A stretch of 64,000 bases of DNA from Escherichia coli (GTDB lineage: Bacteria; Pseudomonadota; Gammaproteobacteria; Enterobacterales; Enterobacteriaceae). The position numbers were made by a program, and so were the translations under genes. The DNA lies in the NCBI RefSeq assembly GCF_003018255.1, contig NZ_CP027440.1. One strand, 5' to 3'. Within the stretch, counting starts at the first letter, position 1; every line of letters begins with the position of its first letter. Positions 46,473 to 48,119 of the stretch are shown here, in pieces. The notes beneath the pieces are model-generated. The model did not search any database. It saw only the letters and a list, made by a program, of their open reading frames with translations, and was not told where the DNA came from.

Positions 46473-48119
46473 ATGAATGGCGCACAGTGGGTGGTACATG
46501 CGTTGCGGGCACAGGGTGTGAACACCGTTTTCGGTTATCCGGGTGGCGCAATTATGCCGGTTTACGATGCATTGTATGACGGTGGCGTGGAACACTTGCT
46601 GTGCCGACACGAGCAAGGTGCAGCAATGGCGGCTATCGGTTATGCCCGTGCTACCGGCAAAACGGGCGTTTGCATCGCCACGTCTGGTCCAGGTGCAACC
46701 AACCTGATAACCGGGCTTGCGGACGCGCTGTTAGATTCCATCCCCGTTGTTGCTATCACCGGTCAGGTATCCGCACCGTTTATCGGCACTGACGCATTTC
46801 AGGAGGTGGATATTCTGGGGTTGTCGTTAGCCTGCACCAAGCACAGTTTCCTGGTGCAATCACTGGAAGAGTTACCGCGTATCATGGCCGAAGCGTTTGA
46901 CGTCGCCAGCTCTGGTCGTCCTGGTCCGGTTTTGGTCGATATTCCAAAAGATATCCAGTTAGCCAGCGGCGATCTGGAACCGTGGTTCACCACTGTTGAA
47001 AACGAAGTGACTTTCCCACATGCCGAAGTCGAGCAAGCGCGTCAGATGCTGGCAAAAGCGCAAAAACCGATGCTGTACGTTGGTGGTGGCGTGGGCATGG
47101 CGCAGGCAGTTTCGGCTTTGCGTGAATTTCTCGCTGCCACAAAAATGCCTGCCACCTGTACGTTGAAAGGGCTGGGCGCAGTAGAAGCAGATTATCCGTA
47201 CTATCTGGGCATGCTGGGGATGCACGGCACCAAAGCGGCGAACTTCGCAGTGCAGGAGTGCGATCTACTGATCGCCGTGGGCGCACGTTTTGATGACCGG
47301 GTGACCGGCAAACTGAACACCTTCGCACCACACGCCAGCGTTATCCATATGGATATCGATCCGGCAGAAATGAACAAGCTGCGTCAGGCACATGTGGCAT
47401 TACAGGGTGATTTAAATGCTCTGTTACCAGCATTACAGCAGCCGTTAAATATCGATGACTGGCAGCAACACTGCGCGCAACTGCGTGATGAACATGCCTG
47501 GCGTTACGACCATCCTGGTGACGCTATCTACGCGCCGTTGTTGTTAAAACAACTGTCGGATCGTAAATCTGCGGATTGCATCGTGACCACAGATGTGGGG
47601 CAGCACCAGATGTGGGCTGCCCAGCACATCGTCCACACTCGCCCGGAAAACTTCATCACCTCCAGCGGCTTAGGCACCATGGGTTTCGGTTTACCGGCGG
47701 CGGTTGGCGCACAAGTCGCGCGACCGAACGATACTGTCGTCTGTATCTCCGGTGACGGCTCTTTCATGATGAATGTGCAAGAGCTGGGCACCGTAAAACG
47801 CAAGCAGTTACCGTTGAAAATCGTCTTACTCGATAACCAACGGTTAGGGATGGTTCGACAATGGCAGCAACTGTTTTTCCAGGAACGATACAGCGAAACC
47901 ACCCTTACCGATAACCCCGATTTCCTCATGTTAGCCAGCGCCTTCGGCATCCCTGGCCAACACATCACCCATAAAGACCAGGTTGAAGCGGCACTCGACA
48001 CCATGCTGAACAGTGATGGGCCATACCTGCTTCATGTCTCAATCGACGAACTTGAGAACGTCTGGCCGCTGGTGCCGCCTGGTGCCAGTAATTCAGAAAT
48101 GTTGGAGAAATTATCATGA
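46473..48119 (+). CDS. ilvG: Acetolactate synthase II large subunit IlvG (intact reading frame)
   Basis: Uninterrupted 548-aa ORF ([34 protein letters not shown]...), thiamine-diphosphate enzyme. Confidence 0.96.

Follow-up and report, generated by a model that had tools for sequence, protein, structure and literature searches.

In Escherichia coli, IlvG is the catalytic subunit, dependent on ThDP and FAD, of acetohydroxyacid synthase II (AHAS II). With the small subunit IlvM it carries out the first step shared by isoleucine and valine synthesis, free of feedback inhibition by valine. Its gene belongs to a standard operon, ilvL-ilvX-ilvG-ilvM-ilvE-ilvD-ilvA, under the attenuation control of a leader peptide. 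K-12 departs from this pattern: a deletion of 2 bp at codon 326 ends its IlvG at codon 328, which abolishes AHAS II and leaves the strain valine-sensitive. The primary paper on the K-12 ilvG lesion is that of Lawther et al. (1981). The AHAS II mutagenesis literature gives Glu47 as catalytic, GDG(X)~26N as the ThDP-Mg motif, and F109, M250, R276, V375 and W464 as residues of substrate specificity. Valine inhibits AHAS I but not AHAS II (PMC8605374; bioRxiv 10.1101/2025.10.31.685768). In MG1655 the premature TGA occupies gene positions 982-984, and loss of its T or G brings back both the frame and valine resistance (PMC8605374). Strains B, W and Crooks have an intact ilvG (PMC3032704; PMC3446290), and the E. 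coli W genome paper calls the K-12 lesion 'two separate base pair insertions' (PMC3032704). The ALS II of CFT073 is valine-resistant and required for growth in urine, and repair of the frameshift in MG1655 rescues growth (bioRxiv 10.1101/2025.10.31.685768). Most peptide nitrogen sources support growth of Nissle 1917, and the inability of K-12 to use valine-containing dipeptides has been attributed to the ilvG frameshift (PMC7924626).

Here we compare these systems with the ilvG locus in a 64-kb stretch of E. coli DNA, referred to below as the window. We conclude that the window gene is almost certainly an ordinary wild-type ilvG of a non-K-12 E. coli. The ilv features are as follows; several were annotated by comparison with the genome of the clinical isolate JNE23-011.

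46235-46333, + strand: ilvL, 32-aa leader peptide of ilvLXGMEDA, MTALLRVISLVVISVVVIIIPPCGAALGRGKA; NCBIfam NF007744, 81.9 bits (cutoff 59)
46355-46389, + strand: G+C-rich terminator hairpin of the attenuator, GACCCCCGCACC-GAAA-GGTCCGGGGGT, then 8 T; read directly from the sequence
46420-46470, + strand: ilvX, 16-aa peptide; annotated ilvX in the identical stretches of JNE23-011 and Nissle 1917
46473-48119, + strand: intact ilvG, large (catalytic) subunit of AHAS II (acetolactate/acetohydroxyacid synthase II); 548 aa and a TGA stop
47449-47452, + strand: site of the K-12 lesion; the window keeps ATAT, K-12 is without 2 bp (AT/TA)
48116-48379, + strand: ilvM, AHAS II small (regulatory) subunit, 87 aa; NCBIfam NF008362, 133.9 bits (cutoff 68)
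48399-49328, + strand: ilvE, branched-chain amino acid transaminase; TIGR01122, 489.8 bits
49393-51243, + strand: ilvD, dihydroxy-acid dehydratase; NF009103, 1228.4 bits; annotated ilvD in JNE23-011
51246-52790, + strand: ilvA, biosynthetic threonine ammonia-lyase; TIGR01124, 894.3 bits; coordinates transferred from JNE23-011

The ORF listing gives 46473-48119 on the + strand as one ATG-to-TGA ORF of 548 codons plus stop, and retranslation returned 548 residues with a single terminal stop and no internal stops. Both the coordinates and the codon count given in the preliminary description, which had claimed a single unbroken ilvG ORF, were exact. Given the segment's own base composition (54% GC), 548 stop-free codons in a row have a chance probability of ~1e-10. 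With the NCBIfam profile for the acetolactate synthase 2 catalytic subunit (NF006524; cutoff 738) the product scores 1072.7 bits, and the match is full length, running over protein residues 1-547 (of 548) and profile positions 1-547 of 548. In the 100%-identical stretch of JNE23-011, RefSeq annotates ilvG (WP_001562361.1) with a start and an end that agree exactly with the window ORF. Antisense to ilvG and inside it lies a 158-aa ATG-started ORF (47528-48004, - strand); none of the RefSeq records examined annotates it, and it probably arose by chance within a coding region of 54% GC.

Three Pfam domains, all essentially full length, make up the three-domain ThDP-enzyme architecture of an AHAS II catalytic subunit: TPP_enzyme_N (PF02776, residues 1-116), TPP_enzyme_M (PF00205, 186-321) and TPP_enzyme_C (PF02775, 374-522). 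Residues E47, S100, F109, Q110, M250, R276, V375 and W464 are present as expected, and the ThDP motif GDG...N begins at residue 427. Among solved structures the nearest to IlvG was the large subunit of E. coli AHAS I, IlvB (6lpi; E = 2e-162, residues 2-544 aligned), and the matches of this search included no solved E. coli AHAS II. IlvB is a paralogous isozyme of the window IlvG, with which it has the three-domain ThDP enzyme fold and the active-site motifs in common.

It had also been proposed that a frameshift in the K-12 ilvG underlies the valine sensitivity of that strain, and that alignment would locate it. MG1655 ilvG (b4488) is an annotated pseudogene of 1645 nt, compared with 1647 nt in the window, and global alignment of the two contains exactly one gap: 2 bp missing from K-12 at window positions 47449-47450 (gene positions 977-978, codon 326), a placement that is ambiguous within 47449-47452 owing to the ATAT context. 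The window retains both base pairs, and its codons 326-327 read AAT ATC (Asn-Ile). Past the deletion, the K-12 frame continues ..LNQ and is cut short by a TGA at codon 328; the window carries neither this stop nor the codon-326 deletion and reads through. The lesion derived from our alignment is consistent with what PMC8605374 describes for MG1655, and its link to valine sensitivity is that given in PMC8605374 and PMC3446290. Against the wording of PMC3032704, alignment with intact alleles gives one contiguous 2-bp deletion in K-12.

The surroundings of ilvG are those of the described operon, with a leader peptide, an attenuator and an overlapping ilvM within ilvLXGMEDA. The ATG of ilvM overlaps the TGA of ilvG (ATGA; junction sequence ATCATGATG), and IlvM has a Pfam ACT_5 domain. 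An Rfam match (RF02744, 46164-46453) spans the ilvL leader. RNA folding of 46235-46395 gave -63.8 kcal/mol (z = -4.28), with the U-tract directly after the hairpin, and a simple consensus terminator scanner did not call the attenuator at 46355-46389 on the + strand. The annotated start of ilvA is 51246, and the first ATG of its ORF is at 51243. Upstream of the operon, on the opposite strand, is an ORF with a YifB match. The K-12 pseudogene of MG1655 is orthologous and lies at the same locus, and the K-12 IlvL, IlvX, IlvM and IlvE proteins are identical to those of the window.

We then determined how common the two states of the junction are in E. coli. Two probes were matched to 5,426 complete genomes. 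One, of 48 nt, spans the K-12 deletion junction and was found in 343 of them; the other, of 50 nt, was taken from the undeleted junction of the window, cannot seed on that of K-12, and was found in at least 4,717. Both counts concern the K-12 deletion site and are lower bounds, since 366 genomes were seeded by neither probe. The seedless genomes are probably explained by nearby SNPs that break the exact 28-mer required by megablast; the ilvG region itself was found in 5,423 of the 5,426. All 60 sampled matches to the K-12 junction were K-12 laboratory derivatives or strains with a K-12-sized genome, including MG1655, W3110, DH10B, DH5-alpha, BW25113, JM109, XL1-Blue, MC4100 and EC600. Since E. 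coli normally has an intact ilvG, finding one narrows the strain background very little. As a marker it excludes just the K-12 laboratory lineage (~6% of complete genomes, practically all of them lab strains), and even this exclusion fails for repaired K-12 derivatives.

The preliminary description had read the intact ilvG, in company with a fimbrial island, as the mark of a non-K-12 source. Its conclusion is right, but the inference is not strict: an intact ilvG alone does not exclude K-12, since engineered and spontaneous K-12 restorations exist. In our reading, the decisive non-K-12 evidence is sequence divergence rather than the intact frame. Relative to K-12, 74 substitutions are scattered over the length of the window ilvG (95.4% identity), and these nucleotide differences from the MG1655 gene amount to 10 amino-acid positions after restoration of the frame. 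Set against a repaired K-12 allele, the gene has 66 codons with synonymous and 11 with nonsynonymous differences, a pattern that fits purifying selection. Upstream of ilvG there are a further 9 differences from K-12 in 373 nt and 11 in 560 nt, so that near-identity to MG1655 was found neither in the gene nor around it. Eight of the nine are packed into 64 nt of A/T-rich sequence just 5' of ilvL (46120-46183). The window is identical to Nissle 1917 over 46120-46183, which makes this a K-12-versus-other allele difference in the promoter-proximal region.

Searches of complete genomes placed the window among clinical isolates. Over 44000-64000, only 3 of 5,426 genomes were at least 99% identical (DETEC-S792 at 99.7%, JNE23-011 and JNE112863 at 99.3% each) and all others were at most 98.7% identical; these nearest genomes (99.3-99.7%) are clinical isolates, with no K-12 strain among them. 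The full 64 kb aligns with JNE23-011 at 99.6% identity and in perfect synteny, and the 242 mismatches and 9 gaps indicate a related strain and not JNE23-011 itself. The fimbrial island likewise stood up as companion evidence, being a real lpf-O113-type operon that is absent from K-12. The operon and its flanks are:

1183-2223: pstS, flanking gene
2471-7450, - strand: lpfA-lpfB-lpfC-lpfD, lpf-O113-type chaperone-usher operon; ORFs of 190, 243, 840 and 356 aa
7757-9586: glmS, flanking gene

The operon thus sits between pstS and glmS, immediately downstream of glmS, in the region of attTn7. In the identical stretch of JNE23-011 the genes are annotated lpfA-O113, lpfB-O113, lpfC-O113 and, for the fourth, 'fimbrial protein' (not lpfD-O113). 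At a coverage of at least 80%, the operon is present in 1,968 of 5,426 genomes (~36%); it is missing from K-12 and many other strains, in which matches were limited to the flanking pst and glmS genes. The window allele is 100% identical to that of JNE23-011 alone and 97.9% identical to that of one water isolate, and its identity to the common lpf-O113 allele of other genomes is ~92.6%, making the window operon a divergent variant.

These data bear on two other accounts of where the window comes from. An intact frame would also be expected of a K-12 derivative with a restored ilvG, whether a spontaneous valine-resistant revertant or an engineered strain, and both kinds have precedents. In MG1655 lineages the frame readily returns when either the T or the G of the early TGA is lost (PMC8605374). 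A RefSeq genome of K-12 background, FELIX_MS508 (NZ_CP148116.1, locus 550-2196), has flanks 100% identical to MG1655, yet an intact 1647-nt ilvG; it was the one examined of three imperfect matches to the K-12 junction probe. Its ilvG has an AT insertion that yields ..LNQYDW.. where the natural sequence is ..LNIDDW.., and four synonymous recoding changes clustered in 20 nt, and is, to judge by these changes, an engineered repair. Nevertheless, a restored K-12 would not explain the 74 substitutions along the window ilvG or the nine more in the 373 nt upstream, nor the presence of an lpf operon that K-12 does not have, and none of the three genomes at least 99% identical over 44000-64000 is K-12. 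Spontaneous revertants, moreover, drop one further base (1644 nt in total), as against 1647 nt in the window. We consider a repaired K-12 origin vanishingly improbable and ruled out by divergence. An origin in Shigella or another Escherichia species, and not in E. coli in the strict sense, might be raised because the genome collection searched contained E. coli only. It is very improbable, although less remote than a repaired K-12, in view of the 99.3-99.7% identity to complete E. coli genomes over 20 kb and the close, perfectly syntenic match to JNE23-011 across the full 64 kb. A non-K-12 E. coli, as the preliminary description had it, is supported by the ilvG substitutions, the lpf operon and the non-K-12 clinical isolates that are its nearest relatives.

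Among intact alleles, that of Nissle 1917 (WP_001012593.1) also encodes 548 aa at the same operon position and differs from the window at 6 nt and 2 aa. Pro182 of the window is Ser in Nissle 1917 and Pro also in K-12, and Ser366 of the window is Pro in both. The 373 nt upstream of ilvG are identical in Nissle 1917 and the window, and we found no differences between the two in architecture or context. The intact ilvG genes of strains CFT073, B and W are likewise non-K-12 counterparts of the window gene. WP_001562361.1 of JNE23-011 has the same sequence as the window protein, and JNE112863 also matches the ilvG DNA at 100% identity. On these comparisons S366 is lineage-specific; it falls in the linker that joins the middle and C-terminal Pfam domains, at a distance from the residues listed above.

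The window and JNE23-011 are identical over 9-26 kb and 43-50 kb, the latter including ilvG, and differ in clusters elsewhere. Positions 50000-53999 (the 3' end of ilvD, ilvA and ilvY) hold 130 of the 242 mismatches (~3%), and further clusters fall at 26-36 kb (kup-rbs-mdtD) and in the rRNA operon. The clustered differences look like a homologous-recombination mosaic, with one putative patch inside the ilv operon.

The source had further been credited with a functional acetolactate synthase II. Here the intact frame, the residues and the operon all agree with the claim, and function itself is strongly predicted from them. It could be objected that the frame is intact but the enzyme inactive or unexpressed in this lineage, through a cryptic missense or a regulatory defect, given that AHAS II function is predicted here from sequence and that S366 is absent from the K-12 and Nissle alleles. 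This is very unlikely: every catalytic and cofactor-binding residue checked is conserved; the identical protein occurs in the independently sequenced clinical isolate JNE23-011, and identical ilvG DNA in JNE112863; synonymous codon differences outnumber nonsynonymous ones by 66 to 11; and the leader, attenuator and promoter-proximal region are the same as in Nissle 1917, and IlvM the same as in K-12. We give a similarly slim chance to the view that this is an uncommon E. coli lineage in which P366S might alter AHAS II and the ~3% ilvD-ilvA-ilvY patch (3-4 kb) would be a recent recombination; nothing in evidence suggests any functional consequence of P366S or of the patch.

Returning to an ordinary wild-type ilvG as the favoured reading, we infer that AHAS II would be active and the strain valine-resistant, as an intact ilvG predicts. 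Work on CFT073 ties valine resistance to growth in urine, a medium with more valine than isoleucine, and the comparison of Nissle 1917 with K-12 ties the use of valine dipeptides to an intact ilvG. An intact ilvG outside K-12 is textbook biology, and RefSeq already contains this exact protein and its locus.

Several other features were recorded in the window:

11202-11359, + strand: sRNA STnc410, between glmU and atpC; Rfam, 182.7 bits, above the gathering score
37723-42942: complete rRNA operon (16S, tRNA, 23S and 5S, then two distal tRNAs)
39503-39602: StyR-44, Rfam match just upstream of the 23S gene
60728-60827, + strand: TrxA 5'UTR thermometer, upstream of trxA; Rfam, 78.8 bits, above the gathering score

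The tRNAs of the rRNA operon, as annotated in JNE23-011, are Glu in the spacer and Asp and Trp in the distal positions, the arrangement of rrnC. The chromosomal replication origin, oriC, is located at the gap between mnmG and mioC (21548-21925). This gap holds two perfect DnaA boxes (TTATCCACA) at 21715-21723 (- strand) and 21895-21903 (+ strand), and the whole window has three such boxes compared with 0.39 expected by chance.
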